DNA from: Acidobacteriota bacterium
GTDB lineage: Bacteria > Acidobacteriota > UBA890 > WLXD01
Reading direction: 5' to 3'
NCBI GenBank assembly: GCA_965248695.1
Contig: CBDFKD010000002.1
Location: forward strand, 5,161,691-5,225,690
Length of the DNA stretch: 64,000 nt
The notes beneath the pieces were generated by a model. That model was given only the letters and a program-made list of their open reading frames with translations. It was not told where the DNA came from and did not search any database. Shown here one piece after another: positions 3,239 to 64,000 of this stretch (position 1 is its first letter; every line of letters starts with the position of its first letter). The translations under genes were made by a program, and so were the position numbers.

Positions 3239-3266
3239 GTGTCGACTCCCTCCGCTCACCGACCCC

Positions 3267-8971: not shown

Positions 8972-9376
8972 GGCGGGCGGGTTCGAGCCCCAATGCGCCG
9001 TAACCAGGGACATGCCCTGGTGCTGGGTGAGCGGCGTAGTCTACGGCCTGGGGCACTGAGGTTTCCGGCCGCCGTGCACGCGAGCCTGGCTACGGCGCAC
9101 TGGGGCTCGAACCCGCCGCCGCGACCGAAGACACTTCTTGCCGGGCGGGCCGGTCGTGCCGCGAACTGAGACGCCGCGGCCCAGCGGTTCCGACGATCGC
9201 CCTCTTCCGTATTCCGGAGGCTGCCGCGACCTCAGGCGCTGCCGGGGAGGAAGTCGACACACCTCCTTCAACCAGCATCGCGTGCACGGCACACACCACC
9301 TAAAGGCGATGACGCGCGAGCAAAGGAGTTCCCCTAGCGCCAGGCGATGACGCTGGTAGAAGGAGGTGTGTCGACT
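8972..9376. repeat. Structured intergenic repeat element, copy B (intact)
   Basis: Homolog of 1377-1834; stem 1 gggttcgagcccc/ggggctcgaaccc and stem 2 gaagtcgacacacctccttc/gaaggaggtgtgtcgac are perfectly complementary; lies between convergent genes. Confidence 0.6.
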
Positions 9377-9419
9377 TGCTCCGCCCTCGTCTCAATCCCG
9401 CTCGCCTGATACCGAAAGA

Positions 9420-10901
9420 TCAATCGCCCGTTTGGCCGAACGTCTCCATGTACCACTTCACGAACCGAGCCGGGCTCCCCTCGTGAGTGGCGTAGCGGCC
9501 AGCGCTGTAGCCGCCCGACTGGATACCGAGGTGGTTGTTGCCGGTAAGCCAGATGTCTTCCATCGTCGTGACGTGCCACAGCGCCTTGAGCTCGTCCGGA
9601 TCGTAGTCGCGCCCCTCGACCGCATCCGGATGCACGAGCCAGATGACCTCGTTGTCGGTTCGGTCGTGCGCACGCGGTGTGTATCGGGCGATCATGACGT
9701 GGTCGTCGTAGCCCTGCCAGTAACCGGTTTGCCAGCGGGTCGTGGCGATATCGGTCTCATGGGTCCACGCGATCCTGGTTGGCAGGAGAGGAGCGACGGG
9801 GTTGCCATCCATGGACCCAGTGACGAACCCCGGGTTGAGCTCGCCGTCAACGTCGCCATAGCCGCCCATGCCTGACGCCCGTCGTTCGGCCGCTGCCGGG
9901 ACCCACTCGTCGACCGCCGTCGCGTGGGCGGCCTTCTGTTCGTCGGTGCGCTCTTCGTCGTAGTTGTGCGCTTTCACCAAGGACCCGTGCGCTGGTCCGC
10001 AGTGGTAGCACTCGATGAAGTTCTCCGTCGCGAGCTTCCAGTTCGACTTCAGCGGGTAGTACTCGCGGGCCGCGACCTTGAGCTTGTCGAAGCGGTAAAT
10101 TTCGTTCAGCGCTCGCACACGAGTCACGGTCGATTCGAACTCGGGGGGCGAATCCGATCGAGATAGATTGATGAAGATCTGGCCAGCGGCGACGCGCACA
10201 TGGCAGGGGAGAAGTCCGTTGTCCGCCGGGTCGAAATCGTCCTGCATGCCATAGGCGTAGATCAGACTTCCTTCGGTGTCATACGTCCAGGCGTGGTACG
10301 GACAGCGGAACACCGGCGAGTTGCCGTTCTGGCCAAGCTGCTTCACTGACAAGCGTGGATCCTGCGGCCTCGTATCCGCGTCGTGGCGGCACACCCGTGA
10401 GCCGCGGTGCCGGCAGACATTGTGGAAGGCGCCGACACTTCCGGTCTGGCTACGAACGAGCAGGATGCTCTCCGAGCGCCCGAACTCGAAAACGAAGAAA
10501 TCGCCCGGGCTCGGAATGCGGCTCGCCTGGTCGACGTACTGCCAGAGATTCTCCGCCAGGAAAGCCTCCTCCACCGCATAGTGCTTCGGGTCCAGGTAGT
10601 ACTCGGCCGGAATCGTGGTGCCTTCTTTCCAGCCGTTGATGCCGGCGTTCTCGGGCACGGTTACTGCGAACCGTGGCGCACCCTTGCCACCGTAGCCCGG
10701 TGCTTCCGCCGGCAAGTCTTTGCGGGCAACCGCAACCGGCGAGCCGATCGCATTCGCTGTTGATGGCCCCTGTGGTGGCGCACCGAACAGGGAGTTGGGC
10801 AAAGCGATTGCCGCGGTCCCAGCGGCTACCGAGGACTTGGCGAACGTGCGGCGGCTTACGCGCTGTCCGCCGTTGACGTCGTGACTGTCCTCGTTGCTCA
10901 T
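9420..10901 (-). CDS. Rieske non-heme iron oxygenase alpha-subunit-like protein with Tat signal
   Basis: Tat motif RRTFAKSSVAAGTAAIALP; Rieske 2Fe-2S motifs CRHRGSRVCRHD…CPYHAW; mononuclear iron motif ENFIECYHCGPAH. Confidence 0.75.
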   Translation of the reverse strand: MSNEDSHDVNGGQRVSRRTFAKSSVAAGTAAIALPNSLFGAPPQGPSTANAIGSPVAVARKDLPAEAPGYGGKGAPRFAVTVPENAGINGWKEGTTIPAEYYLDPKHYAVEEAFLAENLWQYVDQASRIPSPGDFFVFEFGRSESILLVRSQTGSVGAFHNVCRHRGSRVCRHDADTRPQDPRLSVKQLGQNGNSPVFRCPYHAWTYDTEGSLIYAYGMQDDFDPADNGLLPCHVRVAAGQIFINLSRSDSPPEFESTVTRVRALNEIYRFDKLKVAAREYYPLKSNWKLATENFIECYHCGPAHGSLVKAHNYDEERTDEQKAAHATAVDEWVPAAAERRASGMGGYGDVDGELNPGFVTGSMDGNPVAPLLPTRIAWTHETDIATTRWQTGYWQGYDDHVMIARYTPRAHDRTDNEVIWLVHPDAVEGRDYDPDELKALWHVTTMEDIWLTGNNHLGIQSGGYSAGRYATHEGSPARFVKWYMETFGQTGD

Positions 10902-11036
10902 CTACTTCGCCTCTCGACTATTCGAACGTTGGTCGACTCGCGCTTTCGCGAACTCGCCGAGCTTCAACGAACGAAAACCGCGGGAGCCGACGAGCAGATC
11001 GGCTCCCGCGGATTCACTAGCCAACTGACAGAAAGC

Positions 11037-12557
11037 TCAATCGCCGGCCTGGACAATCTCCTTCATGTACCAGTTGATGAAGCTCGACGGCCCGCCCTCG
11101 CGCGTTCCATACCGGCCGCCGCTGTATGCGCCGGACTCGACGCCGTCGTGGTTGTTGTCGGTGATCCAGATATCCTCCTGGATCGTGACGTGCCACAGCC
11201 CCTTGACGTGTTCCGGGTCGTAGTCACGGCCCTCGACTGCGTCGGGGTGCACCAGCCAGACGATCTCGGCGTCAGTGAACTTCTCGTTGCGCGGCGTGAA
11301 CCGAACCACCATGACGTGATCGTCGTAGAACTGCCAGTATCCGGTCGACTCTCCGGTGGTCGCGATGATCGTACGGTGGTCGCCTTCCTTTCTGCCGGGC
11401 AGCCAAGGTGCAGCCTGCTTGCCGTCGATCGTGCCAGTGACAAACCCCGGGTTGAGCAGACCAGTGAGGTTCTCATACTGGGGCTCGCCGCCCATACCTC
11501 CTCCGCCCATGCCGGCATCTTCATCGTCGCGACGACGACGGCTGTCCTCCGGAACCCAGTCCGCCACGGCAGCAGCCTTTTCGTTCATCTGCTGGTCGCT
11601 GAGGTCGTGGTCCCAATTGTGCGTCGTCACCAGGGGTCGGTGGGCCGGGCCGCAGTGGTAGCACTCCTTGAAGTTCTCGAGCGCCAGCTTCCAGTTGGCG
11701 TTGATTGGGTAGGACTCGCGCGCCGCGACCTTGAGGTCTTTCAAGCTGTACTCGGGGGCCAGCCGCCTGAGGGCGGTAACTGCCGAATCGAAATCCGGCG
11801 GCGTGTCTGACTTCGACAGGTTGACGAAGATCTGGCCTTCGGTAACCCGCGTGTGGCACGGGAGCAAACCGTTGTCGGCCGGGTCGAAGTCGTCCTGCAT
11901 GCCGTAGGCGTAGATAAGGCTGCCCTCGGTGTCGTATGTCCAGGCGTGGTACGGGCAGCGGAACACGGGTGAGCTGCCGCTCTGGCCGAGCTGCTTGACC
12001 GACAGACGCGGATCGCTCGGCTTCGAGTCGGAGTCGTGACGGCACAATCGCGATCCGCGGTGACGACAGACGTTGTAGAACCCGCGCACCTCGTTGTCCT
12101 GGCCTCGAACGATCAGAATGCTCTCGGAGCGACCGAACTCGAAGACGTAGAAGTCGCCCGGGTTCGGAATGCGGCTCTCCTGGTCGGTGTACTGCCAGAA
12201 GTTCTCCCCGACGAATTTCTCGTCGGCTTCGAAATGCTTCGCCTCGATGTAGTACTCGGCGGGAATCGTCAGGCCCTCTTTCCAGCCGTTGACGCTCGCC
12301 TTCTTGGCCACCGGGCCGGTGAGCGGGGCTGCGCCCCGGCCGCCGTAGCCAATGTTCTCGTTGCGCGCTTCGACGCGCGCGGCGCGGCCATAGGTGGCCG
12401 TGGTTGCGGTCGTCGTTGCGGCCGTTGCCGGGGTAGCGCCGAAAAGCGATTTCGGGAGAGCGACGGCGGCGGTGCCCGCGGCAACCGAGGACTTGGCGAA
12501 CGTGCGGCGGCTTACGCGCGGCCCGCCGTTCTTGTCGTGGTCGTCCTTCTTGCTCAT
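11037..12557 (-). CDS. Rieske non-heme iron oxygenase alpha-subunit-like protein with Tat signal (tandem paralog)
   Basis: Start ATG at 12557 with AGGAGA RBS; Tat motif SRRTFAKSSVAAGTAAVALP; CRHRGSRLCRHD…CPYHAW; ENFKECYHCGPAH. Confidence 0.75.
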   Translation of the reverse strand: MSKKDDHDKNGGPRVSRRTFAKSSVAAGTAAVALPKSLFGATPATAATTTATTATYGRAARVEARNENIGYGGRGAAPLTGPVAKKASVNGWKEGLTIPAEYYIEAKHFEADEKFVGENFWQYTDQESRIPNPGDFYVFEFGRSESILIVRGQDNEVRGFYNVCRHRGSRLCRHDSDSKPSDPRLSVKQLGQSGSSPVFRCPYHAWTYDTEGSLIYAYGMQDDFDPADNGLLPCHTRVTEGQIFVNLSKSDTPPDFDSAVTALRRLAPEYSLKDLKVAARESYPINANWKLALENFKECYHCGPAHRPLVTTHNWDHDLSDQQMNEKAAAVADWVPEDSRRRRDDEDAGMGGGGMGGEPQYENLTGLLNPGFVTGTIDGKQAAPWLPGRKEGDHRTIIATTGESTGYWQFYDDHVMVVRFTPRNEKFTDAEIVWLVHPDAVEGRDYDPEHVKGLWHVTIQEDIWITDNNHDGVESGAYSGGRYGTREGGPSSFINWYMKEIVQAGD

Positions 12558-12816
12558 TTGCGTTCTCCTGGGCCGCGGCAGCGGTGATCGGTCTGGAAGT
12601 CCAGAAGTTCTCCCTCGGCGCCTGGTGCCCGGAAGCGGCACTCACCCCACTTACGCACGCGCAGAGAACCTACTTTCACTTGTCTAGGTACTACGGTTGC
12701 GGCCGCACTACAACTGGCCGGGCGCCGACCTCCGTATCTTTATCCGGAGCCGGAGCCGCAGCACCTCCTGCTGCATCTATCATCCTTCCATGCCGGTGAA
12801 CGGTCGACCGTACCCC

Positions 12817-14630
12817 TCAGGTACGTTCCGCCCAGGGGTATTGGAACTCGGGACGAATCACGTCGGTCAGCAGCTCCTGCACGGCGCGGTGTGCCTGCTC
12901 GAAGGCCGCCTGGGTTAGCGAGATGGCTGCGGCGTCCGAGTTGGCGATCGTGATGCGCCCGAAACGCTGTCGCCCAACGACCCATGGCGCCTCGTCATAA
13001 CCCCAGTCGGGGTCATACAGGTCATTGGCGCCGCCCGCATAGCCATGCGGCCAGCGGTTGACGGTGATCCCGGCAATGTCGCGCGCCGGGTCGAACCCGC
13101 CGTCGCCGAGCGCCCGGCCGAGCTGGTCGCGGATGCTGCGCTCGAAGGTCTCGAAGCTTGTCGCCTGAAGCTCCTCGCGTCCAGCGCGAAACTGATCTCG
13201 CGCCGACAGTCCGGGCCGAATGGGAAGGCGCTGCAGCCACAACAGGATGGGCTCGTCGGGAGAGGCGGAATGGCGGTAGTCCCCGACGTTGACGCCCCAG
13301 TCCAGATCGATGAACTCGTGGAACCCACCCGGGCTGTGGATGGCACCGACACCCAGGTTGGCAAACGCCGTCCAGTTCTCGATCGCAACCTGCGTGTAGA
13401 CGTACGGCTTCCGTACCGCCAGCTTCAGGGCCTCCTTCTGTGCCTCCGGAACCTCCGGACACAGGTACGGAATCATTGCGTTGTAGCAGGCCATTACGCA
13501 GCTGCCGCCGCCGACGCGGACCGCCCGCCCGTTCTGCACGTAGGTCACCGCGACCTCGTTGGCTGCGCGTCGCTCGCCCGCGTGGCGCGCACTCACCACC
13601 GTGCTGTTGAGACGGATGCGTACCGGATTGCCGGCCTTGTCCAGCTGCGAGTAACGGATCGGCGTGGTTACCGAATCCTCCATCGTCGTCCCCGGCAGCG
13701 CCGCCGGAATGAGCCAACGGACCATTAGCCGCGCGATGCTGGCATTGCCGTCCGGGAAGTGAATTCCCTGGAATGGGTTGTCGCCCGGGGCAGCGTTGCG
13801 CGCCGGACGTTCGAGACCCTCATCTTTCGCAGTCGGGCGATCTTCTCCTCGTCGCTCAACTCCGGTAAATAGTCGCGGTTCTCGGTATAGAGCTGCAGGA
13901 TGCCCGCCTTGGCGGCTTCCGATAGGGGTGTTTGGGCAAGGAAGTCGGTCCAGCGACGGCGCGCCTGGGCACCGCGTGCCCGCCTTGGCTCGCCGACGAC
14001 CAGGCGGTCTGTGCCGAAGGTCTCGCGGTCGAAGAACACGCCGCCGCGCAGACCCATCTCACTGTAGAGGTCGTTCGCCGAGCCGCCAGGGAAGCGCTCC
14101 GCGCTCACGCCGATATCCTCGAGGAGATCCTTGGCCTCCGCCGGATAGTACCCGGTGATGAATTGGGTGCCGCCGTAGCCGATCAACTGCCGGTCGCCGA
14201 CGGTGAACTCGACGCGTTTGGCATGCCCACCGAAGTCGTCATGATTGTCGAGAACGAGCACCCGGGCTTCGGGGAGCGCCTTGCGAAAGTAGTAGGCGGC
14301 GGCAAGGCCACTGAGCCCGGCGCCGACCACCACCAGGTCGTACTGCTCGCCCGATTCCTCTGCCTCGTTCCAGGTCTTGCCGTAGCGCATCTCGTGCGCC
14401 ACCTCGAAGGAACCGTCGTGGCTGCCGCGCATGCCGGTGAGCCTCGGCGGGTAGTAGCTTTCCGGGTCCTGTGTGGGCGTCGCATGGCTGCCTGGGGGCT
14501 GGCCGGTAGGCACGGTGGCGGAGGCTCCAATCGCTGCTGCCGAGCCTCCAACGGCGACGCTGCTGCCGTTAAGGAAATCCCTTCGAGTGATTCGGCGGTC
14601 CATACCAAGCTGCTTGTCAGTCCTTTTCAC
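12817..14630 (-). pseudogene. Disrupted paralog of the Tat-signal FAD oxidoreductase (internal deletion of about 215 bp causing frameshift)
   Basis: N-part (13725..14630) and C-part (12817..13725) are each collinear with gene 3267..5261. The junction RLRKM|GLERP skips about 70 aa of the intact paralog and the downstream frame is out of register. Confidence 0.65.
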
Positions 14631-35990: not shown

Positions 35991-36280
35991 GAGCGTGACG
36001 TAGCACGCCATTAGGCTACGGCGGCTAACAGGGTCTCTTTAGATCCAGGGGGCCGCGCCCCGGTGGGGACGAATCGGAAGTAACCGAGCGTGACGCGGTG
36101 CGGTACGAAGCCGCGGCGGCTGGTGGATCTTGAAGGATCCAAGGGCCGTGCCCCGGTGGGGACGAATTCGGTAGTACTAAGACATATTCTGAGAGCGTGA
36201 CGTGGCACGCCATTAGGTCACGGCGGCTAACAGGGTCTCTTCAGATCCAGGGGGCCGCGCCCCGGTGGGGACGAATCCGC
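35991..36280. repeat. Three tandem about 100-bp repeat units, each with two hairpins, between scaffold and coat genes
   Basis: Units start at 35991, 36087, 36193; each ends ccagggggccgcgccccggtggggacgaat; units 1 and 3 near-identical, unit 2 diverged but hairpin-preserving. Confidence 0.8.
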
Positions 36281-52980: not shown

Positions 52981-53670
52981 ATGAGACTCCGCACTGCCAT
53001 TCTCCTCATCGCCCTCGCCACCCTCGTGGGCTTCGGTGCCGGATGGTGGCACTTCGCACCCTCGCTGCTGTCGCCTGAGGGGCTGGTCGGGCTGGCCTCG
53101 GGGCTGCTGGATCAGCAGCGCCGCGAGTCGCTGGCCCAGTACGAGGCGATGCAGGCGACCCACGCGGCCGAGATCGCCGCCTATGAAGCCGACCTCTCCG
53201 CTACAGAACGAGCGCTCGGCCAGCTGGGTCTCCGACTCGCCGAGCGCGATGCAGAGGCGGTCGAGGCGGAGCAGGCCCTTGGCCGCACTCTCCAGCTGGC
53301 GGCACAGCGCGAGGCGCAGCTGCGCGATGAGATCTTGGCGGCCGTCCCCGGGCTCGAGGTGCCCCTGGAGGAGCTACAGGCACAGCACCGCGGCGTGGTG
53401 AAGGGGTTCGAGCTACGGGTCAAGGCGCTGCAGCAGAGCGTCGAGACTCGTGACCAGCTGATCGTGAACCTGCGACAGCAGCTGGGTACCACTCGCCAGC
53501 TATACGAGACAACGCAAGCGCGGCTCGACCTGGCGGAGGCGCGGCGCAAGAGCCTCGAAGGACGGCGCGTGCGGCTAGCTCCAGCGCTGCTGATCGGCGG
53601 GATACGCGACCTGAGCGGCACAGACGGCTGGAGGGCTGGCGTCGCCGTCGGGATTGCGATCACCTGGTAG
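52981..53670 (+). CDS. Spanin-like protein (N-terminal TM + coiled coil)
   Basis: Start ATG 52981; MRLRTAILLIALATLVGFGAGWW then coiled coil. Confidence 0.5.
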   Translation: MRLRTAILLIALATLVGFGAGWWHFAPSLLSPEGLVGLASGLLDQQRRESLAQYEAMQATHAAEIAAYEADLSATERALGQLGLRLAERDAEAVEAEQALGRTLQLAAQREAQLRDEILAAVPGLEVPLEELQAQHRGVVKGFELRVKALQQSVETRDQLIVNLRQQLGTTRQLYETTQARLDLAEARRKSLEGRRVRLAPALLIGGIRDLSGTDGWRAGVAVGIAITW

Positions 53671-53722
53671 GAACCTCGAAGCTGCGCCTGACCAATCCGG
53701 TGCCGAGACGGTGAGGATGCAG

Positions 53723-55666: not shown

Positions 55667-55904
55667 GTCGAAGCCCCTCAGCTTCGCGCGGCGGGAAAGA
55701 TAGCACGCGAGAAGATCGCCGGCACTTCAGCTGCCTGCCAGCAGATGCGGCGCCAGGCATGGCACAGGTGCTCGCGGCCAAAAAGCGGTCTTGATGAGCA
55801 ACCAAAAGAGCGGCCGGAGGAGGTATCGTAGCGAACGTACCGTTCCGACCGCTCTTTCGTTCTTCGTGTACCGGGTGGTGGTGGGCTGGTGCCGGCTCCG
55901 GGCT

Positions 55905-55946
55905 TCCTATCTACGGGTCACGGGTTCGATCCCCGCCACCTCCACA
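55905..55946 (+). other. tRNA 3'-end-like fragment (T-arm GGGTTCGATCCCC + acceptor-like CACCTCCA); candidate att-site remnant
   Basis: T-loop consensus and acceptor 3' strand present but no foldable 5' half upstream. Confidence 0.35.
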
Positions 55947-56029
55947 CCGTTACCACCACACTAAACCTCCCGCGCACGTAGTCGTCAACGCTGATCGGCC
56001 ACTCGGGTACAAAATAAGGCTGGAGCATT

Positions 56030-56407: not shown

Positions 56408-56561
56408 GGGCTTGGATCTGGTCGCATCAAGAGCCTCAGCGGCCGGCGGATCAGGTTCGGGCGGCCCGCCGTGCTCATCGGTGCCGTGCGGAGCCCTGGG
56501 CGTGGATGGGAGCCGGGTGTCGCCGTCGGGATCGCGGTTACCTGGTAGGGAGGCGTGTGAT

Positions 56562-57032: not shown

Positions 57033-57119
57033 GCCATCGTGGCGAAATCGGCAAACGCACCCGGTTTGCGACCGGGCGGCTGTCTAGGCCTTGTGGGTTC
57101 GAGTCCCACCGATGGCACC
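57033..57119 (+). tRNA. Class-II (long variable arm) tRNA-like gene, Leu-type scaffold, non-canonical anticodon loop UUUGCGA
   Basis: Acceptor GCCATCG/CGATGGC, UG at 8-9, 3-bp D stem GCG/CGC with AAATCGGCAAA loop, anticodon stem CCCGG/CCGGG, 16-nt variable arm, T arm GTGGG-TTCGAGT-CCCAC, discriminator A. Confidence 0.65.
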
Positions 57120-57639
57120 TAAAGTACCTCCAGCAGCATCGAACCGTAGCCGCCGTGCCGCCACGATGGCGAATGTTACTTGTAACAGTATGGCGCAACG
57201 TGACACAGACCGTAAGGAACCGTCGAAGCCCGGCCCTGATGCCGAGCGGCTGAAGATCGACGACGATCCCGAGGAAGCCCTACAGCGGCTCCTGAAGAAC
57301 GCCCCCGCGCCAGAAGAACCGCGACCGCCCCGTCGACCGCGTTGACTGACAACAGCCGGTATTCAGCGACCGTCGCCACCCTCAGCAGATTTCAACAGGT
57401 ACATACTCCCGAATACCTTTGAACAAAATATCGGGTGGCCCTCGTTTCTTCGATAGGCCACCCGAAGAAGTCCCGTAGCTCAGGGACACCCGTCTCACGT
57501 GCCCCCTAGGTTAGCACAAGCGAAGCGCTCCACAGCGCCGGTTTTGAGATAACGAACCAAAGGTGGTCGTCGTGAATGCCGGTCGTGTCGTGAAAGCTGT
57601 CGCCGGCCTCAACAATCACCCCGCTGCACCAGCTGATCG

Positions 57640-57735
57640 GATTATGTCGACCTTCTTGCTGAACGCGTTTGTTAGGCGAGTAAATCTGCGCATGTTCATG
57701 CGCATGGTCAGGTTCTGCCGCTCGATTCGCCGGAG
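57640..57735 (-). pseudogene. C-terminal fragment of an IS1-family transposase (…ERQNLTMRMNMRRFTRLTNAFSKK…)
   Basis: Matches conserved C-terminal motif of the intact IS1-family transposase at 59026..59895 but diverged in sequence. Confidence 0.5.
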
Positions 57736-57892
57736 AGCCGATGAGCTAGAAGAACTTCTCATCGAAAGCGTCGATGACCCATCCGACCTCGACCACGAGC
57801 GCGTCAAGGCTCTCGAATACAGCCAAGCCGGTATCAGGCCCCATACCTTCGCCGAAGACTACGCGCGCGACCACAAGCGTATCCATTCGGCA
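57727..57892. repeat. 165-bp segment duplicated (near-)identically at 62548-62712
   Basis: Directly read identity. Confidence 0.9.
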
Positions 57893-58098
57893 ACTAATGC
57901 AGATCCGAATCCGAAAATGAGAGCAAACCGCAACAGCGATCGCGTCGGCTGCGAGAATGCCCCCGGCAAACGGGTGCTGTCCTAATTTGAACTGCTCGAA
58001 GTTTATGAGTGATTTACAACGATTTATATCATGCAGGATGGACTCTCCCTTAACTTACTTTATACTTTCACTTAAATCGTATTGACGGGAGAGAGACT

Positions 58099-58701
58099 AT
58101 GGTTCTAGGCTCTGACAGGTTGTGGGAAACGGCGTTTAGGGGACTCATGGACCCGAAATTGCTTGTCGAAAGGTACCAGTACTTATCCAGGAAGCGACGC
58201 GAGATCGAGGGGAAGATGGCGGCCCTGGCGGAAATGCAGCAAGTCTTAGGGGTGGAATTGGACGACGTAAACGACCAGCGCGCCATGCTTTGGCTTCAGC
58301 TCGATCGACAGGCTCTGCTTGATCGTGACGATATCCGCGAGTATCTCGGTGACGCCACGAAGCCGCCTGGCATCAAGCGCGTGCGTGCCGAACAGGTAGA
58401 CCGAGACTTGATGAGATACCTGGCCAATCAAGATGGTCGGGAATGGCGCGTCCGGGACATCCTCACGCACAAGAACGCCATGCGGCTCGGCCATATGTCT
58501 GATAGCGGTGTTCGGGCGGCGATTAACCGCGCCATCGAGCGCGGCGAACTGGAGAAGACTGGCGGATGGGGGATCGTTCGCGTATCGGACCGAGGTAAGG
58601 AGTCTTACGGTCTTGATGCCGAGGCTGACTTGGAAGAACAAGACATGGACCTGGCCGAGAAAGAGGCCATGGAAAAGGAGAAGGCTAGGCCACCGTTCTG
58701 A
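58099..58701 (+). CDS. Hypothetical protein (200 aa) in low-GC island
   Basis: AT-rich upstream region 57990-58098; GGGAGAGAG RBS. Confidence 0.45.
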   Translation: MVLGSDRLWETAFRGLMDPKLLVERYQYLSRKRREIEGKMAALAEMQQVLGVELDDVNDQRAMLWLQLDRQALLDRDDIREYLGDATKPPGIKRVRAEQVDRDLMRYLANQDGREWRVRDILTHKNAMRLGHMSDSGVRAAINRAIERGELEKTGGWGIVRVSDRGKESYGLDAEADLEEQDMDLAEKEAMEKEKARPPF

Positions 58702-59004
58702 ACAAAGAGCCCGCCGCTGCGGTAACAGCGACGGGCTCCGACAACTTGTGATGGCCTCGTGGACAACAGACGGTCAAGTCGCGGGACTGGAAATCCCGAG
58801 ATCCCGGTTCGACACCGGGCGGGGCCTCACCTTTCTCCCCTGACAGCAAGGAGGGTCAGATGATAGCGCGAGCACCACCGTCAGCGCATCCCTGAACGCC
58901 GAAGGGGCCGGGGTGCGTCTCACGATGCTCCCCGGCCACCTATAAGTCGCCCGGCCCGCTGCACGAACAGCGAACCGGGCTAGATCCAAGACGCGGGCAT
59001 AGGC

Positions 59005-59930
59005 CGCATCGGACCCTCACAGCCATTGTGGTCCTGCCCGCCATCCGGAGCAAGACCGATGGCGAACGTACTGGCCCCCGAGAAGAAGCGCATGATCATC
59101 GCCGCCCTGGTGGAGGGCAACAGCATCCGCAGCATCGAGCGCATGACCGGCTGTCACCGAGACACGATCTGCCGGCTGCTCGTGCGGGTAGGTGAAGGCT
59201 GCGAAGCCATGATGCGCGAGCGGTTCACCGGTTTGCGCCTTGACGATCTCCAGGTCGATGAAATCTGGACCTACGTCCAGAAGAAGCAGGCCACGGTGAT
59301 CAGGTCCGGCAAGCGCGTGAATCCCAAGCATGGTGATCAATGGGTTTTCGTCGCGCTCGATGCCGAAACGAAGTTGGTGCCGCATTGGATCGTCGGCAAG
59401 CGCGACGGCTACAACTCCTACCAGATGATCTCGGAGCTGGCCCGTAGGATCGACGGGCCGTTCCAACTGACCACGGACGCTTTCGCTGGCTACAAGGCCG
59501 CTCTCGGAGTCGTGGCGGCTCGTGGTATCGACTACGCACAGCAGACCAAGAGCTATACGGCCACGAATCCATCCTTCGGACGTTACTCACCACCAAGGGT
59601 CAGCCACTGCACAACTCAGGTTGTGGCCGGAGATCCAGATCCGGAGGCGATCTCCACGAGCTACGTCGAGCGTCAGAACCTGACCATGCGGATGAGTATG
59701 CGACGGTTCACCCGGCTGACGAACGGCTTCTCAAAGTCGCTGCGCAACCTGGAAGCCGCTGTGTCGCTGCACTTCGCCTGGTACAACTTCGTGCGGATTC
59801 ACGACAGCCTGCGGAGCACGCCGGCCGTTGTGGCCGAAGTAGTTAGTACCGAGTTGGCGATGGACGACCTGCTGGCCTTCGAGGCGGGCTACTAATGCTC
59901 GGTGATTTCCACAGGATATCCACAACGGGT
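59005..59930 (+). mobile_element. IS1-family insertion sequence (boundaries approximate)
   Basis: Imperfect terminal inverted repeats around cattgtggtcctg / caggatatccacaacgg; single fused InsAB-like ORF. Confidence 0.45.
59026..59895 (+). CDS. IS1-family transposase (single-ORF InsA-InsB type)
   Basis: N-terminal HTH; C-terminal YVERQNLTMRMSMRRFTRLTNGFSKSLRNLEAAVSLHFAWYNF matches IS1 InsB C-terminus. Confidence 0.85.
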   Translation: MWSCPPSGARPMANVLAPEKKRMIIAALVEGNSIRSIERMTGCHRDTICRLLVRVGEGCEAMMRERFTGLRLDDLQVDEIWTYVQKKQATVIRSGKRVNPKHGDQWVFVALDAETKLVPHWIVGKRDGYNSYQMISELARRIDGPFQLTTDAFAGYKAALGVVAARGIDYAQQTKSYTATNPSFGRYSPPRVSHCTTQVVAGDPDPEAISTSYVERQNLTMRMSMRRFTRLTNGFSKSLRNLEAAVSLHFAWYNFVRIHDSLRSTPAVVAEVVSTELAMDDLLAFEAGY

Positions 59931-60189
59931 GGCGCTCCTGTTGATGATGACCCCCAACATGTTGTGGTCGTGATGTTGACCACGGGACTTCCCGCAGGCT
60001 ACAACAACAAAGACCCGACGGGTTCACCGTCGGGCCTTTGACCAAACCAGTTGTCACCCGGCGTAGGCGCGCCGGGACTTTGATGCTCTGTCGGAGCATA
60101 GGCCGCTCTGACCTTGAGCGTCAAGTCGCACCCGGTGCGTCTGTCGGGTGGCAACGCAGCGCCCGCATTATGCGGGAGGAGTAACTGCA

Positions 60190-60345
60190 ATGCCAACTAC
60201 AGGCAAGACTGCCACCACGTCCGGGATCTACCGGGCCAGCGACTGCGGCTACGAAATCGCCCTCAGCCGAGGGGAACGATTTCCACCGTGTCCGATGCAT
60301 CGGCGTGCTGTGACGTGGACTCTGGTGAGGGCGACGAAGCACTAA
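60190..60345 (+). CDS. Small Cys-containing protein (51 aa)
   Basis: GGGAGGAG RBS 7 nt upstream of ATG; C…CPMH. Confidence 0.35.
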   Translation: MPTTGKTATTSGIYRASDCGYEIALSRGERFPPCPMHRRAVTWTLVRATKH

Positions 60346-60724
60346 CGTAGCCCGACACCGCATCACTGTTGTAACCGAAGAGGTGCCCCATTACCCAATC
60401 GGGGCACCTCTTCCTCGTCTCCAAGAGAGCTTCTAGGGCGTAGGCGTGACGATATACGCCTAGCGCCCACTGGCCGCGTTCGACCTCCAAGAGGAACCCG
60501 CTGATCGGCAGCGATAGCGAGGACAAGAGAGTCTGTAGCTCGCTGGCGAACGCGGGCAAGTCTTCGCTCGCGATGTTGCGCGCTCCGACCTCGGCAATGG
60601 GTTTACCACCCCAAGCTACCCATTCGGCATACGCCGAAATCCGGCCCGCTTCGTAGTCGGTGATCATTTTTTTGAGATCACTCCGATCCGGCGCGCTGTC
60701 GCCCTCCATTAGGCTAACAGGCAC
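60263..60724 (-). CDS. Hypothetical protein (153 aa)
   Basis: ORF only. Confidence 0.4.
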   Translation of the reverse strand: MPVSLMEGDSAPDRSDLKKMITDYEAGRISAYAEWVAWGGKPIAEVGARNIASEDLPAFASELQTLLSSLSLPISGFLLEVERGQWALGVYRHAYALEALLETRKRCPDWVMGHLFGYNSDAVSGYVSASSPSPESTSQHADASDTVEIVPLG

Positions 60725-60809
60725 AAACGCTCCTCGAAACGGCCAGCAAAATCCGTACCAAACTGACTTTCAGTGACTTTCATAATGGGACACTACCCAT
60801 ACGAGATCA

Positions 60810-61424
60810 CTACCCTGGCAGGCGGCCGGGGCTGGCGCGAACGCCGAGCACGGTGTTGGTTTCCGGGTCGATGTCGCATTGGTAGGTGTGGTTCTGCCAA
60901 GCACCGAGGCCATTTTGGAACTGGATCTTGTCGCCGATCAGGGTGAGGGTTCCGGCAGACTGATCCTTCCAGCGGAAGCGGCTGAACTTTGGCTCAAGGA
61001 AGCCGTCTGTCCACTGGTGGCTGTATTGCGCTAGCCGCTCGATGCGGTCTTCGCAGTACACACCTGTAGAGATGTGCCTGTTGCCCCAGCAGTTGAGGTC
61101 TTGCCGACAGGCCGTGTCGCTGACCGAAGGTGCGGAAGACGAGCCTGACCCTGGGTCATCCGTGCTGAGGACGTAGACGCAAAAAGCCAGTCCTAGCAGA
61201 AGCATCACCACACATCCCATGGCGGTCTTGCTGGCCTGCTTTTTCTCTGCAGCCGCCGTCTCGGCGGTGAGGCTGGGTGCCGAGTCCTCGGGCTCGGGGG
61301 CTGCAGTGGCTGGGGGCGCGGCCGCGGCCGGATCCTCCGTTCCAACCGGGCAACCGCACTGCGGACAGGCTGCCGCCTGGTCGGAAATCTGAGCCTTGCA
61401 TTCAGGGCATTCGATCAGAGCCAA
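60810..61424 (-). CDS. Zinc-ribbon membrane protein (N-terminal CPEC…CPQCGC, one TM, Cys-containing C-terminal domain)
   Basis: Motifs directly read. Confidence 0.5.
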   Translation of the reverse strand: MALIECPECKAQISDQAAACPQCGCPVGTEDPAAAAPPATAAPEPEDSAPSLTAETAAAEKKQASKTAMGCVVMLLLGLAFCVYVLSTDDPGSGSSSAPSVSDTACRQDLNCWGNRHISTGVYCEDRIERLAQYSHQWTDGFLEPKFSRFRWKDQSAGTLTLIGDKIQFQNGLGAWQNHTYQCDIDPETNTVLGVRASPGRLPG

Positions 61425-61714
61425 CGTCGGTTTCCCCGTTCAGCGTTCACCGACCCTCGGGTGAGGTCGGCCTGTAGCGTGTAGAGCCTGCCGTAGCAGG
61501 CGCTCTCGGTCCTCCAGCGCGCTCCCCACGCGGCCTTCTCATCTTCTCCTTGTGTTAACAGACATTTGTCTAGTATGGTCTGCCACTTTGGATTAGAGCA
61601 CACACGTACGGATACCGCTACCGGAAGCAGCCCCCTCGCCTCCCGGTTCGGAATGCTGGGAGGCATAAAGCATGGAGTGGATTGCGGCCAGTTTCGGATT
61701 TCTAGTCGGGGTCA

Positions 61715-62119
61715 TCATCGGTGTTCGATGGGGCGTAGCTTCGGTGCTGCGCGTGGCTCGGGATCGTCGCCGTATTCGGCTCCGAGTTCCCTAACAATCT
61801 TTTCAAGCTCGTCTACGTCCGCTTCGTATTCTTCTTTGATCTGGAAAAGCAAATCCATCAGGCGGAGGGTTCGTATGCGCGAGCGCGTGAGCCCCGGCAG
61901 ATGAACCGCCAAGGCATCAATGAGCCCCTGGCCGCTCGGGTGCGACTTGCCCGTGATCCAGTTACTCAGCGTCGGTTGTGGGACACCTATTAGGCGGGCA
62001 GTAGCGCTCTTGTTCATGCCGCTTTCCTCGATCGAAGCCTCGATCGCCGAGCCCAGGTACCGCCTGAGGTAGATGTGTCCGTGTTTCTTGCGGGGTCGCA
62101 CGCGATCAATACTTAGCAC
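61715..62119 (-). CDS. XRE-family HTH protein (divergent partner)
   Basis: MNKSATARLIGVPQPTLSNWITGKS. Confidence 0.55.
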   Translation of the reverse strand: MLSIDRVRPRKKHGHIYLRRYLGSAIEASIEESGMNKSATARLIGVPQPTLSNWITGKSHPSGQGLIDALAVHLPGLTRSRIRTLRLMDLLFQIKEEYEADVDELEKIVRELGAEYGDDPEPRAAPKLRPIEHR

Positions 62120-62181
62120 TTCCTGCCGACGGGTGCCGGAAAGCTATTGCGCTATCCAGTGAAACAGGTTATCTTTCTTCT

Positions 62182-62415
62182 ATGAGATTCAGCAGAGAAA
62201 CACTCCGATCTGCACGGGAAGAGGCGGGAATGTCCCGCGAGGACGCTGCCTTCTTCTTGCGGCAGTCTGGAAACGGTGTGTCGGTACGCACACTGCTTAA
62301 TTGGGAGAGCGGTCGGTCGGAACCGCCGGCAGGCCAACTCGTGAATTTGGCGAATTTGTACGGCGTGAACCCAGTTGCATTTTTTTCACCAGATTCAACC
62401 AGTAACGCAGCCTAA
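62182..62415 (+). CDS. XRE-family HTH protein (Cro-like)
   Basis: MSREDAAFFLRQSGNGVSVRTLLNWESGRS. Confidence 0.65.
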   Translation: MRFSRETLRSAREEAGMSREDAAFFLRQSGNGVSVRTLLNWESGRSEPPAGQLVNLANLYGVNPVAFFSPDSTSNAA

Positions 62416-62547
62416 GACGAATACTCATACTCGACGAGGTCGCATAGAAACCCCATGACGCTACCGAACGCAGACACCCACACGCCACTGCGGAATCAGG
62501 CGGGTAGCGCAGTGGGCGAGGCCATCGTCACGCTTCTCATGGAGCTT

Positions 62548-62712
62548 CGCCGGAGAGCCGATGAGCTAGAAGAACTTCTCATCGAAAGCGTCGATGACCC
62601 ATCCGACCTCGACCACGAGCGCGTCAAGGCTCTCGAATACAGCCAAGCCGGTATCAGGCCCCATACCTTCGCCGAAGACTACGCGCGCGACCACAAGCGT
62701 ATCCATTTGCAC
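62548..62712. repeat. Second copy of the 165-bp duplicated segment
   Basis: Identical to 57727-57892. Confidence 0.9.
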
Positions 62713-63432
62713 TTTTGGGGGTGCAGAGAAGACGAGGGTCGCGATTTTTGCGTTGTGTACCAGGCGGGGCTTGGTGACGGCGATGAACGTTTTGGGCTGG
62801 CCAGCGGATTCGTCATCGACGAGAGCGTTCAAACGGAAGCGCTCGGGCATCGCGGCGACGACCGAGAGCAATTTGTGCTTGTTCCGGTTGTCCAGTCTTC
62901 TCAGAAGGGAGAGGGGCGCCATCACGGGATCGTCACCTTGGTACGGCTGAACTCGCTCGATCAAGGATCTGGCCTCAGCGGGAAGGCTGGCAATGCGCCG
63001 AGCCCCGCGCGATTCGTATGCCCGTTCGGAGTCGAAGATCGGAAACAGGGTCAGTGTGTCATCAAGATCCGCCCCAGAAAGCTCCCAGGCGATGTAGTCG
63101 AGCGAGCACCGCAGGTTGTGGATGCAATCGCCGATGGTCAGCGCCCACTCACTACTGGGCAAAGCAGGAGGATCTTTGACGCGAGCGACGTAGCGGACTT
63201 CGTCGATCTCAGCCTCAACGACGATTCGATAGAGGTTCGCTTCAAAGAAGGAGTCAGTTTCTCTTTTAAGCGCTTCGAGGTGCTGTCTCGCCCGACGAAG
63301 TTTGGCGCGACTTCCATCAAGCCCCAATTGGCACAGCTCCTCGGGATTGAGGTCGACGACGACGGGGAGGCGGCGTGAGCGGCGTGAGGCTAGTCGAACT
63401 CGACGCCTTCCAGAAGCTCGTCGACGGTGCAT
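62566..63432 (-). CDS. Hypothetical protein (288 aa) with possible HEPN-like Rx4-6H motif (RLDNRNKH); antisense ORF 62455..63378 is an alternative
   Basis: Diverse composition with amphipathic helices (IHNLRCSLDYIAWELS); downstream of and overlapping minus-strand HTH gene; C-terminal 50 aa lie in the 165-bp repeat. Confidence 0.4.
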   Translation of the reverse strand: MHRRRASGRRRVRLASRRSRRLPVVVDLNPEELCQLGLDGSRAKLRRARQHLEALKRETDSFFEANLYRIVVEAEIDEVRYVARVKDPPALPSSEWALTIGDCIHNLRCSLDYIAWELSGADLDDTLTLFPIFDSERAYESRGARRIASLPAEARSLIERVQPYQGDDPVMAPLSLLRRLDNRNKHKLLSVVAAMPERFRLNALVDDESAGQPKTFIAVTKPRLVHNAKIATLVFSAPPKVQMDTLVVARVVFGEGMGPDTGLAVFESLDALVVEVGWVIDAFDEKFF

Positions 63433-63650
63433 TCCAGGGCGCGGGCGATCTTCGCGACGTTCTCGATTCCAGGGCTTCTTGTGTTGCCGCTCAGAATCTT
63501 GTTCAGCTGGCTTCGAGCCATCCGCGCCCGATAAGCCGTCTCCTCGATCGAGATTTCCTTCTCCTGGATTACGGCTCGCACACGCTGCCCAAACGTCAAG
63601 CTCATGCGCCAGACGCTATTCGTGTGAGTTTCCCCCATCAATCTTCGCAA
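63390..63650 (-). CDS. XRE-family HTH protein
   Basis: ISIEETAYRARMARSQLNKILSG. Confidence 0.6.
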   Translation of the reverse strand: MRRLMGETHTNSVWRMSLTFGQRVRAVIQEKEISIEETAYRARMARSQLNKILSGNTRSPGIENVAKIARALECTVDELLEGVEFD

Positions 63651-63657
63651 ATACTAC

Positions 63658-63704
63658 TTGACGAATCTGCAACTTCTCTTGTATAAATATAGACAGCGCA
63701 GATT
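63658..63704 (+). promoter_or_regulatory. Sigma70-like promoter (TTGACG-18-TATAAA) flanked by 6-bp inverted repeat ATCTGC/GCAGAT, between divergent HTH genes
   Basis: Directly read. Confidence 0.5.
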
Positions 63705-63731
63705 TGCAAGGTCATAACCGGAAGCTCGATC

Positions 63732-63941
63732 ATGGATAATCGCATCAAGGAAGAACGCGAAAAGCGGGGCATGACTCAAATGGCCTTGGCTGTCGCCGCT
63801 GGGCTCCACCCAGGACACGTCAGCCGGATCGAAAACGGCTCCGGCTGCGAGCTGAAGACTGCACGCAAACTCGCTGACGCGCTCGAAGTAACCCTCGATG
63901 AGCTAGTCGGGCCGCGACGAAGCTGCCTAGGAGCCCCATGA
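63732..63941 (+). CDS. XRE-family HTH protein (Cro-like)
   Basis: MTQMALAVAAGLHPGHVSRIENG. Confidence 0.7.
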   Translation: MDNRIKEEREKRGMTQMALAVAAGLHPGHVSRIENGSGCELKTARKLADALEVTLDELVGPRRSCLGAP

Positions 63942-64000
63942 CGCTACCGAGCCCCACCACCCCCACGCCACTGCGGAGTGAGGCGAACGGCGCAGTCAAC

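Follow-up and report, generated by a model that had tools for sequence, protein, structure and literature searches.

In lambdoid phages, the imm regions are exchanged between heteroimmune relatives. Recent phage mosaics are a few hundred bp in size (PMC3945230). In the tandem prophages of M. abscessus, a superinfecting phage recombines with the resident prophage, and the repressors carry C-terminal -AA tags (PMC9934374). The CI/Cro-like pairs of cryptic prophages behave like toxin-antitoxin modules (RacR/YdaS-YdaT, PMC5700373; paaR2, PMC8630535).

We studied a window of 64,000 nt, the whole stretch of DNA analysed here, from an Acidobacteriota bacterium (GCA_965248695.1, contig CBDFKD010000002.1, positions 5,161,691-5,225,690, forward strand), and compared it with the related loci L001, L002, L003, and L015 (among them loci in an Acidobacteriota MAG and an 8.6-kb contig). 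Assignments were made with Pfam, NCBIfam, PHROG, Rfam, and ARAGORN. The GC content drops at 54-64 kb. The region from 61.4 to 64.0 kb is probably the immunity and early-control region of a temperate-phage-like element, in which stacked cassettes recombine at conserved gene ends, and would represent a clear, though not revolutionary, case of modular recombination. Each cassette consists of a small leftward XRE gene with a product ending in ...LLEGVEFD, sometimes with cargo behind it (here, gene Y), a short region with divergent promoters, a rightward XRE gene with a product ending in ...EAA, and a stub of ~60-80 nt, designated E, in which the ribosome-binding region of the first early gene precedes ~20 codons from its start. 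Only the final E in each array runs on into that gene and the early operon, which encodes a zinc-finger protein, a pentapeptide protein, a PDDEXK nuclease, and an AAA_24 ATPase. Homologous recombination between E stubs and between the conserved 3' ends of the leftward XRE genes would add, remove, and swap cassettes, with co-resident or superinfecting relatives as partners, and the recombination genes of the element itself may assist. The variable cores (DNA-binding parts and promoters) would give one element several independent repressor specificities, and these probably provide immunity to several related phages as well as local control of cargo such as Y.

This arrangement resembles the lambdoid imm region in that divergent HTH regulators head an early operon and variable specificity cores lie between conserved flanks (for mosaicism, see PMC3945230 and PMC2327257). 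Exchange would likewise be homologous or homeologous, with recent mosaics of a few hundred bp (430 nt here). It differs in that two to five modules are stacked serially in one element, each with an early-gene stub, and in that the leftward proteins, except that of cassette 1, are Cro-sized (about 65-90 aa), with neither a CI-type C-terminal domain nor repeated operators seen. The PeSL cassettes in the hyperplastic regions of T4-type phages (Arbiol et al. 2010, PMC2839356) are also short conserved units between variable small genes, and recombination between the units accounts for insertions, deletions, and replacements among close relatives, as it would here. A PeSL is an early promoter with a terminator stem-loop in a virulent phage, whereas E, a coding-gene 5' stub, belongs to a temperate-type element whose promoters are found in the variable part. 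The tandem prophages of M. abscessus offer a plausible first step, in which crossover at shared sequence places two elements in tandem (PMC9934374), whereas here only small immunity modules stand in tandem and up to five are retained. Small divergent XRE pairs, as found here, are also kept in defective prophages, possibly because loss of the repressor is harmful (RacR/YdaS-YdaT, PMC5700373; paaR2, PMC8630535), although those systems are single pairs and ours form arrays.

The initial annotation had described two divergent XRE pairs, and Pfam confirmed four XRE/HTH_3 genes (61715-62119 and 63390-63650 on the minus strand; 62182-62415 and 63732-63941 on the plus strand), which also match PHROG repressor families. 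Its term CI/Cro-like switch is appropriate insofar as these are divergent phage-type XRE regulators, but a CI/Cro role is putative, no CI-type C-terminal domain having been found with Pfam in the leftward proteins. Similarly, the intergenic regions, described as promoter/operator-like, contain sigma-70-like promoters, but the space between the divergent genes showed no repeated operators. Judging from sequence, the pairs may act as switches or confer immunity.

The array is preceded by a leftward cargo gene (60810-61424, minus strand) for a zinc-ribbon protein (phrog_13160) that has a hydrophobic segment; the gene is 95% identical to L001 over 307 nt. Its final ~60 nt (60810-60868) are a conserved 3' stub that recurs at the leftward cargo joints of the relatives, with three copies in L003; these joints are marked by the 3' stub in a mirror image of the E arrangement. 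Between this gene and the CI-like gene lies a conserved non-coding block, N (61434-61666), with the palindrome CAGACAAATGTCTG and several hairpins. Block N is 76-82% identical to L001, L002, and L003 and has partial extra copies; a few compensatory pairs were seen among four sequences, and no Rfam family matched. The leftward XRE regulator of cassette 1 (61715-62119, minus strand; up to 134 aa) matches Pfam HTH_3 and PHROG transcriptional repressor families. It is the only leftward XRE in the window with a C-terminal extension, an architecture common to L003 373-888, and is called CI-like because of its position. The rightward promoter-like site (62147-62175, plus strand; TTGCGC-17 nt-TATCTT) was read from the sequence and was missed by the consensus promoter scan. 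As it ends 6 nt upstream of the ATG, the cassette 1 mRNA would be nearly leaderless. The rightward XRE (62182-62415, plus strand) has 77 aa, ends in ...NAA, and matches Pfam HTH_3/HTH_31 and the PHROG CII-like regulator and repressor families.

In cassette 2, gene Y (62566-63327, minus strand; 253 aa, with a TTG start preceded by GAGGAG) is the cargo, located 3' of the leftward XRE gene, XRE3. Y is a real gene: its product is identical to P0009, it has full-length homologues in a very large uncharacterised family, and the AF2 model of its structure has a pLDDT of 89.8. XRE3 (63390-63605, minus strand) has 71 aa from ATG in a frame open to 63650 and ends in ...LLEGVEFD; its final ~70 nt, containing the GGCTAGTCGA motif, are conserved among cassettes and are 79-87% identical in nucleotides to the ends of five further cassettes. 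The divergent promoter region (63659-63715) contains a rightward site (TTGACG-18 nt-TATAAA, 63659-63688), a leftward site (63715-63686), and two 9-nt imperfect inverted repeats. In the rightward XRE (63732-63941, plus strand; 69 aa), the usual ...DEAA* tail is found in the +1 frame, which points to an apparent 1-nt frameshift.

Alternatively, the XRE pairs could be toxin or defence modules (TA-like or Abi-like) gathered in a hotspot rather than phage immunity switches. The leftward XRE would then serve cargo such as Y as its antitoxin or its regulator, with the rightward XRE as a short-lived partner. XRE3 and Y are co-oriented and 62 nt apart, and a Y paralogue lies behind another XRE in L001, which would fit such a role, as would the conserved charged residues of Y (D67, H70, R73, D77, K150, and H151). 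The rightward XREs end in -AA in 11 of 12 cases, a tail like a C-terminal degradation tag (compare the ssrA-like AA tag, PMC9934374), and neighbouring loci carry further defence-like cargo, namely SNIPE/T5orf172 and a possible nuclease (called by eye from an ORF). However, most cassettes have no cargo, Y homologues elsewhere are standalone without an XRE, and the arrays occupy the exact place of a phage switch, between leftward cargo and the early operon. We consider this explanation rather unlikely.

Element E follows both pairs. Copy 1 (62432-62513, plus strand; core 62455-62512) is an internal stub that consists of the XRE stop codon, ATGACGCTACC, 16 nt, ACGCCACTGCG, 14 nt, and GCGCAG. Copy 2 (63915-64000, plus strand; core 63938-63995) matches the L003 copy with 92% identity. 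Positions 62432-62513 and 63915-63996 are 78% identical over 82 nt, and a 44-nt degenerate E pattern matches the window at these two places only, against 0 matches expected. The conserved 60-bp sequence of the initial annotation does follow each pair, over these 82 nt; it is not an anonymous repeat but the start of an early gene left as a stub. The finding that the last 63 nt of the window repeat the start of 62455-62520 also holds and reflects the fact that the window ends, at 64000, within the E copy of cassette 2.

On the sequence evidence, E corresponds to the opening ~20 codons of a zinc-finger protein gene, the first of the early genes. In L001, L002, and L015, the ORF that opens at the terminal E stays in frame through to the zinc-finger early gene. 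The gene calls P0011, P0012, and P0014 begin MTLP... at the ATG of E, and P0012, an in-frame deletion variant, requires that ATG. Across 11 distinct E copies, the 11-mer ACGCCACTGCG and GCGCAG never vary, even at synonymous positions, and the variable columns are distributed 6/7/8 over the codon positions with no third-position bias. Together, these are a hint of a nucleotide-level function of E that the stub model does not explain. E might be kept mainly as a cis-acting control site, with recombination as a by-product. It could be a stoperator-like operator or roadblock to transcription, resemble a nut site, or form an RNA hairpin shortly after each rightward promoter, and a common factor would bind there and restrain rightward transcription from every cassette. 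An inverted repeat of 5-8 bp (CCACTGCG...CGCAGTGG) is as invariant as ACGCCACTGCG in the 11 copies, and every copy has the same orientation relative to rightward transcription. In one case, E stands ahead of a ParB-like gene deep inside an early operon with its ATG replaced by ACG; there, a 26-codon ORF begins two codons upstream and overlaps the next start (ATGA). On the other hand, E has no covariation and no matching Rfam family, and the stem common to all copies is only 5 bp long. The 11-mer does not occur elsewhere in the 64-kb window beyond chance, whereas stoperators are genome-wide, and the terminal E copies are demonstrably the start of a translated ORF. We regard a primary cis-acting role as rather doubtful.

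The preferred reading is recombination at conserved gene ends. The window contains two cassettes, L001 five, L002 at least four, L003 at least one, and L015 two, with an identical order of parts: leftward XRE ending in LLEGVEFD (with or without cargo), promoter region, rightward XRE ending in -EAA, and E stub. The repeated capture or recombination of small immunity modules proposed in the initial annotation is thus borne out by relatives with two, at least four, and five modules, each followed by E. The XRE proteins of different cassettes are mostly <40% identical; at the nucleotide level, the E copies are 75-95% and the 3' ends of the leftward XRE genes 79-87% identical. Loci that otherwise share ~90% identity differ in cassette number and neighbours; L015, ~90% identical to L001, lacks cassettes 1, 4, and 5 of the latter. 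After one and the same rightward XRE (94% identical) comes either the zinc-finger gene or a different ORF of 82 aa, likewise beginning with E, and three different XREs precede the same terminal continuation. The window, L001, and L015 share a tract of 430 nt (62507-62936) without a single difference, against 91% identity over the remainder of Y; the tract points to recent exchange, and its size matches that of recent mosaics (PMC3945230).

In all 10 of 10 cases, the left cassette borders lie at GGCTAGTCGA, which is more regular than expected from random deletion. A dedicated integron-like system, in which a recombinase recognises E and/or the GGCTAGTCGA border and inserts or excises circular cassettes, would account for this regularity, for the same two motifs bounding every cassette, for the differences in cassette number between close relatives, and for the E remnants just before several left borders, such as the collapsed E at ~4040 in L002. 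Integron arrays are indeed similar in that small modules stand in series, split by a recurring element of ~60-80 nt, and vary in number among relatives. In contrast to integrons, each cassette here has its own divergent promoters, the joint distance is not fixed (from E to the next cassette, 20 nt to >400 nt), and E has no attC-like extended imperfect palindrome. No integrase or site-specific recombinase domain was found in the window ORFs tested or, in precomputed Pfam assignments, among the genes called in L015 and on both flanks of L001, and GGCTAGTCGA is simply the sequence around the stop codon at the conserved ...EFD* gene end. Such a system is very unlikely.

Terminase, PDDEXK_1, and AAA_24 genes lie beside the related arrays. 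Detection of the array family was limited to two genomes and two small contigs; it was absent from IMG/VR and from JGI metagenomes. P0001, P0011, and P0013-15 are located on the same 5.76-Mb contig as P0008 and P0009 of the window itself, and hence the element family is multi-copy; several copies reside in this Acidobacteriota genome and others in the related MAG.

The initial annotation had also reported an identical 165-bp block (57727-57892 and 62548-62712). The repeat exists; its extent is 162 nt, exact and direct (57726-57887, copy A, and 62546-62707, copy B; 100% identity). As the sole long exact repeat within the 64-kb window, it is not due to chance. Copy B lies in gene Y and is the native 3' end of Y; that the block encodes the C-terminus of a minus-strand gene was correct, and this C-terminus is kept in distant homologues. 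Copy A (minus strand) is a dead Y fragment that retains 47 codons from the end of the gene, its stop codon, and a further 20 nt. It is 100% identical to Y of L001 and L015 as well, and the sequences on either side of it show no relation to the Y locus.

The reported IS1 element and fragment were both confirmed, as a transposase ORF and an inverted remnant that directly adjoins the repeat. The intact ORF (59026-59895, plus strand; 289 aa from TTG, 278 aa from ATG) matches Pfam DDE_Tnp_IS1 with 24.6 bits against a cut-off of 24.1; its best NCBIfam match, transpos_IS1 (63.4 bits), is below the cut-off of that model. Plasmid matches to this ORF are annotated as IS1 family, and no convincing terminal inverted repeats of the element were found. 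The remnant of a second, diverged IS1-family transposase gene (57650-57725, minus strand; motif ...ERQNLTMRM.MRRFTRLTN.FSK...) is cut inside the gene at 57725/57726. Its 65 nt at 57661-57725, which abut copy A, are inverted relative to 59666-59730 with 78% identity, and the likeness to the intact gene is limited to ~75-110 nt.

An assembly artefact, in the 162-nt duplication or the tandem modules, might be suspected from the exactness of the repeat in what is apparently a large single-contig assembly. However, copy B and its flanks are collinear over ~1 kb with two independent assemblies (L001 and L015), the flanks of copy A are unique on both sides within continuous sequence away from contig ends, and the tandem layout is found in five loci. 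A collapsed or expanded repeat would not generate the internal joint between IS fragment and Y fragment, and an artefact is extremely improbable. The region from 57.5 to 61.4 kb would be a decayed flank with an IS1-family element, a second IS1 remnant, and the Y relic. The block at 57726 would derive from a second Y-bearing cassette, joined to the IS remnant by illegitimate deletion. The duplication, which had been grouped with module capture, belongs to a separate process, as a relic of a second Y truncated with an IS1-type remnant.

The proposed link to a nearby tRNA was not upheld, as no tRNA gene was found near any of the related arrays and the tRNA-like genes of the window are anomalous. 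The one at 58753-58828 (plus strand; ARAGORN; Rfam tRNA, 50.2 bits) has U73 and a class I shape that is at odds with its anticodon GGA (Ser). A hypothetical 200-aa gene (58099-58701, plus strand), to which no family was assigned, is served by an AT-rich promoter region of its own and is followed by a terminator hairpin at 58707-58738.

Each of the two divergent pairs of XRE genes at the right end of the window is followed by a copy of a conserved element, designated E (62432-62513 and 63915-63996; 82 nt, 78% identity). A 44-nt degenerate pattern for E matched these two sites only, with no match expected by chance. The initial annotation had described here a duplicated segment, an IS1 element and a fragment, two divergent XRE pairs, and a conserved sequence behind each pair; all of these features are present, with boundaries displaced by a few bases.

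The nearest relative of Y, the product of the minus-strand cargo gene in the second cassette (62566-63327), is P0001 (93%), which led to a 4.36-Mb contig of an Acidobacteriota MAG. The E pattern has nine exact matches in this contig, in three loci (L001, of which L004 is the same region; L002; and L003), and a tenth copy with a looser core motif was found in L002. L015, an 8.6-kb contig from the same sample as the MAG, was added through a protein search. The genome of the window (5.76-Mb contig, with exact matches to the window's own proteins P0008 and P0009) also has a Y of the P0001 type, and the early gene discussed below is present in four versions; thus, together with the three loci of the MAG, several copies of the element family exist in both genomes. 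No DNA match to the window was found in the phage collection, and the E and N patterns (N is a non-coding block, see below) had no true match in IMG/VR and the JGI metagenomes. Eight IMG/VR matches to a relaxed E pattern were treated as chance, as the rest of E was missing and the surroundings were unrelated. The element family is known from two genomes.

In the orientation of the window, five consecutive units were found in L001, at least four in L002, two in L015, at least one in L003, and two in the window before its end. A unit contains a small leftward XRE gene, whose product ends in ...LLEGVEFD; in the first unit, a larger CI-like XRE gene takes this place. In some units, a cargo gene for Y or a 285-aa paralogue of Y lies behind the leftward XRE gene. 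A short promoter-like region, a rightward XRE gene, and E then follow. The XRE proteins are mostly less than 40% identical between units; identity amounts to 75-95% among the E copies and to 79-87% over the 3'-terminal ~70 nt of the leftward XRE genes. The sequence GGCTAGTCGA, found at 10/10 left borders, is the region of the final D codon and the stop codon.

E consists of ATGACGNTACC, 16 nt, ACGCCACTGCG, 14 nt, and GCGCAG. In the last unit of L001, L002, and L015, an ORF that starts at the ATG of E continues in frame into a zinc-finger gene heading the early operon, in which genes for a pentapeptide-repeat protein, a PDDEXK_1 nuclease, and an AAA_24 ATPase follow. The gene calls P0011 (175 aa, from the genome of the window) and P0012 (from a 127-kb contig) open with MTLPKAGTHTPLRR..., and P0012, an in-frame deletion, would have no start codon without E. 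Because the terminal ORFs run in frame from E and P0012 needs its start, E is the translation start of the first early gene together with its initial ~20 codons, the internal copies of E being stubs of that gene. In certain units, another ORF opens with the stub, for example, that of an 82-aa protein present three times. A 26-codon E-stub ORF before a ParB-like gene starts two codons upstream of the usual ATG (ACG there) and overlaps the ParB-like start.

Other identities of E were considered. A structured RNA was rejected, as RNAalifold gave only an invariant 5-bp stem with no covariation and Rfam gave no match. Purely peptide-level selection was also rejected, as the variable columns showed neither a third-position excess nor a codon-position bias. 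As the 11-mer and the GCGCAG of E are invariant, synonymous positions included, and there is no codon-position bias, an additional role of E at the nucleotide level is possible. The 11-mer was found inside E copies only; with one mismatch allowed, there were four matches in 64 kb against three expected.

In L001 6870-6899 (L002 ~240-270), a strong terminator-like hairpin with a 13-bp stem and a T run faces leftward, within the 5' extension of the zinc-finger early gene and directly after the terminal E. Its stem shows apparently compensating changes between L001 and L002, though the encoded peptide differs. Long internal tandem repeats occur in the early-operon genes at L001 3526-3912 and 5037-6445, with periods of 9-12 nt and 15 nt; those with the 15-nt period are in pentapeptide-repeat proteins.

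On the other side of the CI-like gene (61715-62119) from the E stubs, a mirror-image junction separates the leftward cargo genes. It is composed of the last ~16 codons (...TVLGVRASPGRLPG and the stop codon) of the family of the zinc-ribbon gene at 60810-61424 and part of block N, the neighbour of the CI-like gene; L003 has three copies of this junction, and L001 and the window have one each. The 3' stub of the zinc-ribbon gene was found between unrelated leftward cargo genes at 60810-60868 in the window, at 1911-1969, 4347-4393, and 5745-5793 in L003, and at ~17200-17266 in L001. Block N is located at 61434-61666 in the window, at 12426-12659 and 16408-16478 in L001, at 7680-7891 in L002, and at 944-1181, 2026-2117, and 4479-4583 in L003. 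It contains CAGACAAATGTCTG, a palindrome without mismatches, as well as hairpins in which a few changes are compensatory, and its distal ~100 nt is repeated before successive leftward cargo genes. No Rfam family corresponded to N, nor did any IMG/VR or JGI metagenome sequence match it. As E stubs lie on the rightward side and 3' stubs of cargo genes on the leftward side, the joints are marked on both sides, by gene-start stubs on one and gene-end stubs on the other.

Comparison of the loci gave evidence of recombination. L015 and L001 are ~90% identical across the Y cassette and the early genes, and cassettes 1, 4, and 5 of L001 are missing from L015. One rightward XRE gene (94% identity among L001, L002, and L015) precedes E and the 82-aa gene in two of the loci and E and the zinc-finger gene in the remaining one; three different XRE genes have the terminal type of E behind them. 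That the second E of L015 is a hybrid of two L001 copies was considered and dropped, as this copy shares its subtype with the terminal E of L002; the reshuffled neighbours of E stand independently of this. A stretch of 430 nt that starts within E and reaches the middle of the Y gene (62507-62936) shows no difference between the window, L001, and L015, and identity is only 91% in the remaining part of Y. Recent mosaics of the same size have been described in temperate phages (PMC3945230).

We infer that crossovers took place between E copies and between the conserved 3' ends of XRE genes, the partners being co-resident or superinfecting relatives. Such crossovers could insert, delete, or replace cassettes; if the elements first stood in tandem and the phage body between them was then lost, one stub would remain each time. 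Judging from their domains, the PDDEXK_1 and AAA_24 genes of the early operon may encode a phage recombination system. Phage recombinases are known to favour exchange between sequences that are short and diverged (PMC3945230, PMC2327257). An element with several repressor specificities could be immune to several relatives and control its cargo genes locally. A more far-reaching reading, which we regard as rather unlikely, is that the arrays are more than scars of recombination and form a selected device for 'immunity stacking', in which temperate elements collect orthogonal repressor modules serially through a dedicated linker (~60 nt from the start of the early gene, containing the invariant 11-mer and an inverted repeat), the linker doubles as a control site, and exchange is driven by the nuclease and annealase genes of the element. 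If so, superinfection immunity would be wider, the early operon would lie behind several locks, and the arrays would be a clean illustration from nature of the old 'conserved linker' model of how phages evolve by modules.

The initial annotation had called the two XRE pairs CI/Cro-like switches. The four XRE/HTH_3 genes do form two divergent pairs, all four match PHROG families of phage repressors or regulators, and sigma-70-like hexamers in the short divergent regions point at the rightward genes; to this extent, the arrangement is that of a CI/Cro pair. An early operon behind the Cro-side gene was seen in the relatives, and the window sequence stops at 64000 inside E. However, only HTH domains were detected in the leftward proteins (71 and up to 134 aa), with no CI-type C-terminal oligomerisation domain or S24 self-cleavage domain, so the pairs are not CI/Cro switches in the strict sense. 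Of intergenic repeats that might serve as operators shared by both regulators, there were only two 9-nt imperfect inverted repeats in cassette 2; cassette 1 and most L001 cassettes had none. Among the rightward XRE proteins of the window and the related loci, 11 of the 12 have an -AA terminus, in most cases -EAA, which also closes the 82-aa E-headed ORF and an L002 protein of 93 aa; the 26-codon ORF ends in -AAA. These tails resemble C-terminal degradation tags (compare PMC9934374) and would fit short-lived regulators of the lytic side. At 63900-63941, the rightward XRE of cassette 2 ends in ...GPRRSCLGAP, and the +1 frame still encodes the usual ...DEAA tail without change; a 1-nt frameshift thus appears to have occurred close to a GGGCC run, which is either real or a sequencing error.

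Judged by its sequence, the locus appears to be a case of phage modular mosaicism, in which the serial stacking of immunity-type XRE cassettes with gene-stub linkers would be the novel feature. Phage genomes are mosaics, and the respective shares of recombination at short conserved sequences and of random joining followed by selection are debated. The unusually clear joints, the variable regulator cores between the stubs, and the presence of two to five cassettes in near-identical backgrounds bear on this 'linker' debate. Should every cassette be active as a repressor module, a single element could be immune to several relatives, which would shape the coexistence of phages in soil Acidobacteriota, for which, to our knowledge, there is almost no experimental phage biology.

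The closest known systems are the lambdoid immunity regions and their exchange, the PeSL cassettes of T4-type phages (PMC2839356), and tandem prophages (PMC9934374); integrons are similar by form only. Integron cassettes are promoterless and co-oriented, whereas the cassettes described here contain divergent genes with their own promoters. No integrase domain of the intI tyrosine recombinase type was found in the window ORFs from 57.5 to 64 kb or in the called genes of L001 and L015, and E is not an attC site, its copies sharing the 5-bp stem only. The PeSL unit is an early promoter with a terminator stem-loop, whereas E is a coding 5' stub and the promoters are in the variable part. The stoperators of cluster A mycobacteriophages are many asymmetric sites distributed genome-wide and oriented with transcription; the 11-mer is confined to E and is thus not of this type. 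The uniform, stoperator-like orientation of E is a consequence of the array structure.

The only long exact repeat detected by self-comparison of the window is 162 nt in length (57726-57887 and 62546-62707). Both strands are open across it in the second cassette. The minus-strand ORF is that of Y (253 aa), with a TTG start at 63327 after GAGGAG; P0009 is its exact sequence on record. The alternative that the block encodes a small plus-strand protein after the rightward XRE gene, the C-terminus of Y being a fusion, was rejected: full-length homologues of Y, 36-41% identical, conserve the C-terminal part encoded by the block, and thus the 307-aa plus-strand ORF is an antisense shadow of Y. The left copy is a fragment of the Y gene (the last 47 codons and 20 nt). 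On one side, it abuts a remnant of an IS1-type gene, an inverted 65-nt match (78%) to the interior of the transposase gene at 59026-59895, and on the other, unrelated DNA; it is a relic rather than a functional component.

A profile search with Y gave 18,194 cluster representatives at E ≤ 1e-3 and 13,027 at E ≤ 1e-10, with K9, D67, H70, R73, D77, Q127, P128, K150, and H151 invariant in the family. Pfam, NCBIfam, PADLOC, and PHROGs had no model for it; thus, this locus brings to notice a very large protein family that lacks a family model. The AlphaFold model of Y is confident (pLDDT 89.8), and its fold is common to two unnamed viral proteins; no solved relative was found. The Y gene and the leftward XRE gene of its cassette (63390-63605) are on the same strand, 62 nt apart, as is the case for the co-oriented genes of type II toxin-antitoxin systems; this likeness applies to cargo-bearing cassettes only, and Y did not fall into a recognised toxin family.

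The transposase encoded at 59026-59895 scored just over the cut-off of Pfam DDE_Tnp_IS1 (24.6 bits against 24.1), and its best NCBIfam match, transpos_IS1 (63.4 bits), was under the equivalog cut-off of 100. The gene has 71-76% nucleotide matches to genes annotated as IS1 family, and the plasmid-database matches of the window are confined to this IS. It is a distant member of the IS1 family with a DDE transposase of the IS1 type. No convincing terminal repeats were found around it. Just 3' of the gene, at 59950-59990, is a palindromic stretch, GACCCCCAACATGTTGTGGTC, the arms of which resemble IS1 terminal repeats; it could be an IS end or two abutting IS ends. Leftward beyond the cargo gene, the window contains an unassigned ORF, the IS, tRNA-like genes, and relics; L001 has late genes there. 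The left flank of the array-bearing element appears to be truncated.

The modules had also been linked to a tRNA gene, a connection that found no support, because none of the related arrays has a tRNA gene nearby. The tRNA-like genes of the window are nevertheless unusual. The 87-nt gene at 57033-57119 (plus strand; Rfam tRNA, 58.2 bits), located just after an AT-rich promoter region and next to an XRE gene, has a class II shape with the anticodon UGC (Ala), a long variable arm, a 3-bp D stem, A73, and a tRNA-Leu-like body. If the body determined its charging, Ala codons would be misread. In Acidobacteria, irregular tRNAs that resemble missense suppressors have been described close to transposons and toxin-antitoxin genes (PMC5389517). 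Allo-tRNAs have an 8/4 or 9/3 acceptor/T-stem, whereas this gene has the normal 7/5. Bacterial tRNA-Ser is of class II; the 76-nt gene at 58753-58828 (plus strand; Rfam tRNA, 50.2 bits) has the anticodon GGA (Ser) in a class I shape, with a short variable arm, U73, and D and T loops recalling tRNA-Cys. It is a second mismatch of identity and anticodon, at most 1.7 kb from the first; the island is adjoined by tRNA genes of this kind. A 'tRNA-Arg(CCT)' predicted by ARAGORN at 55874-55947 (plus strand) has several mismatched pairs; in Rfam, it matched two tmRNA ends only, at 18 bits, with a lower score for the tRNA model, and it is probably a degenerate tRNA-like remnant. No att-type duplicate of its 3' end (55919-55945) was found within the window.

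The region from 28 to 53.7 kb belongs to a different prophage, whose structural and lysis genes (portal, tape measure, SLT) showed no similarity to the partial terminase gene and adjoining late-side genes of L001. The GC content, otherwise about 0.64-0.67, drops to 0.575-0.61 across 54-64 kb. A direct repeat of 46 nt (80% identity) that ends in ...ACCTGGTAG is present at 53626-53671, the 3' end of the last plus-strand prophage gene, and 2.9 kb downstream at 56504-56549; the pair brackets three minus-strand genes, one of them XRE, and the degenerate tRNA-like sequence, and may represent a further gene-end stub that marks an insertion. The structural region of the prophage contains an 85-nt direct repeat (35991-36075 and 36193-36277, 95% identity) and, at 36050-36279, a GC-rich unit of 28 nt in three copies. 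In the chromosomal part, several direct repeats of 100-300 nt (70-81% identical) between 1397-5084 and 8993-14456 indicate diverged paralogous gene pairs (3262-5084 and 12812-14456; 9411-10901 and 11028-12557).
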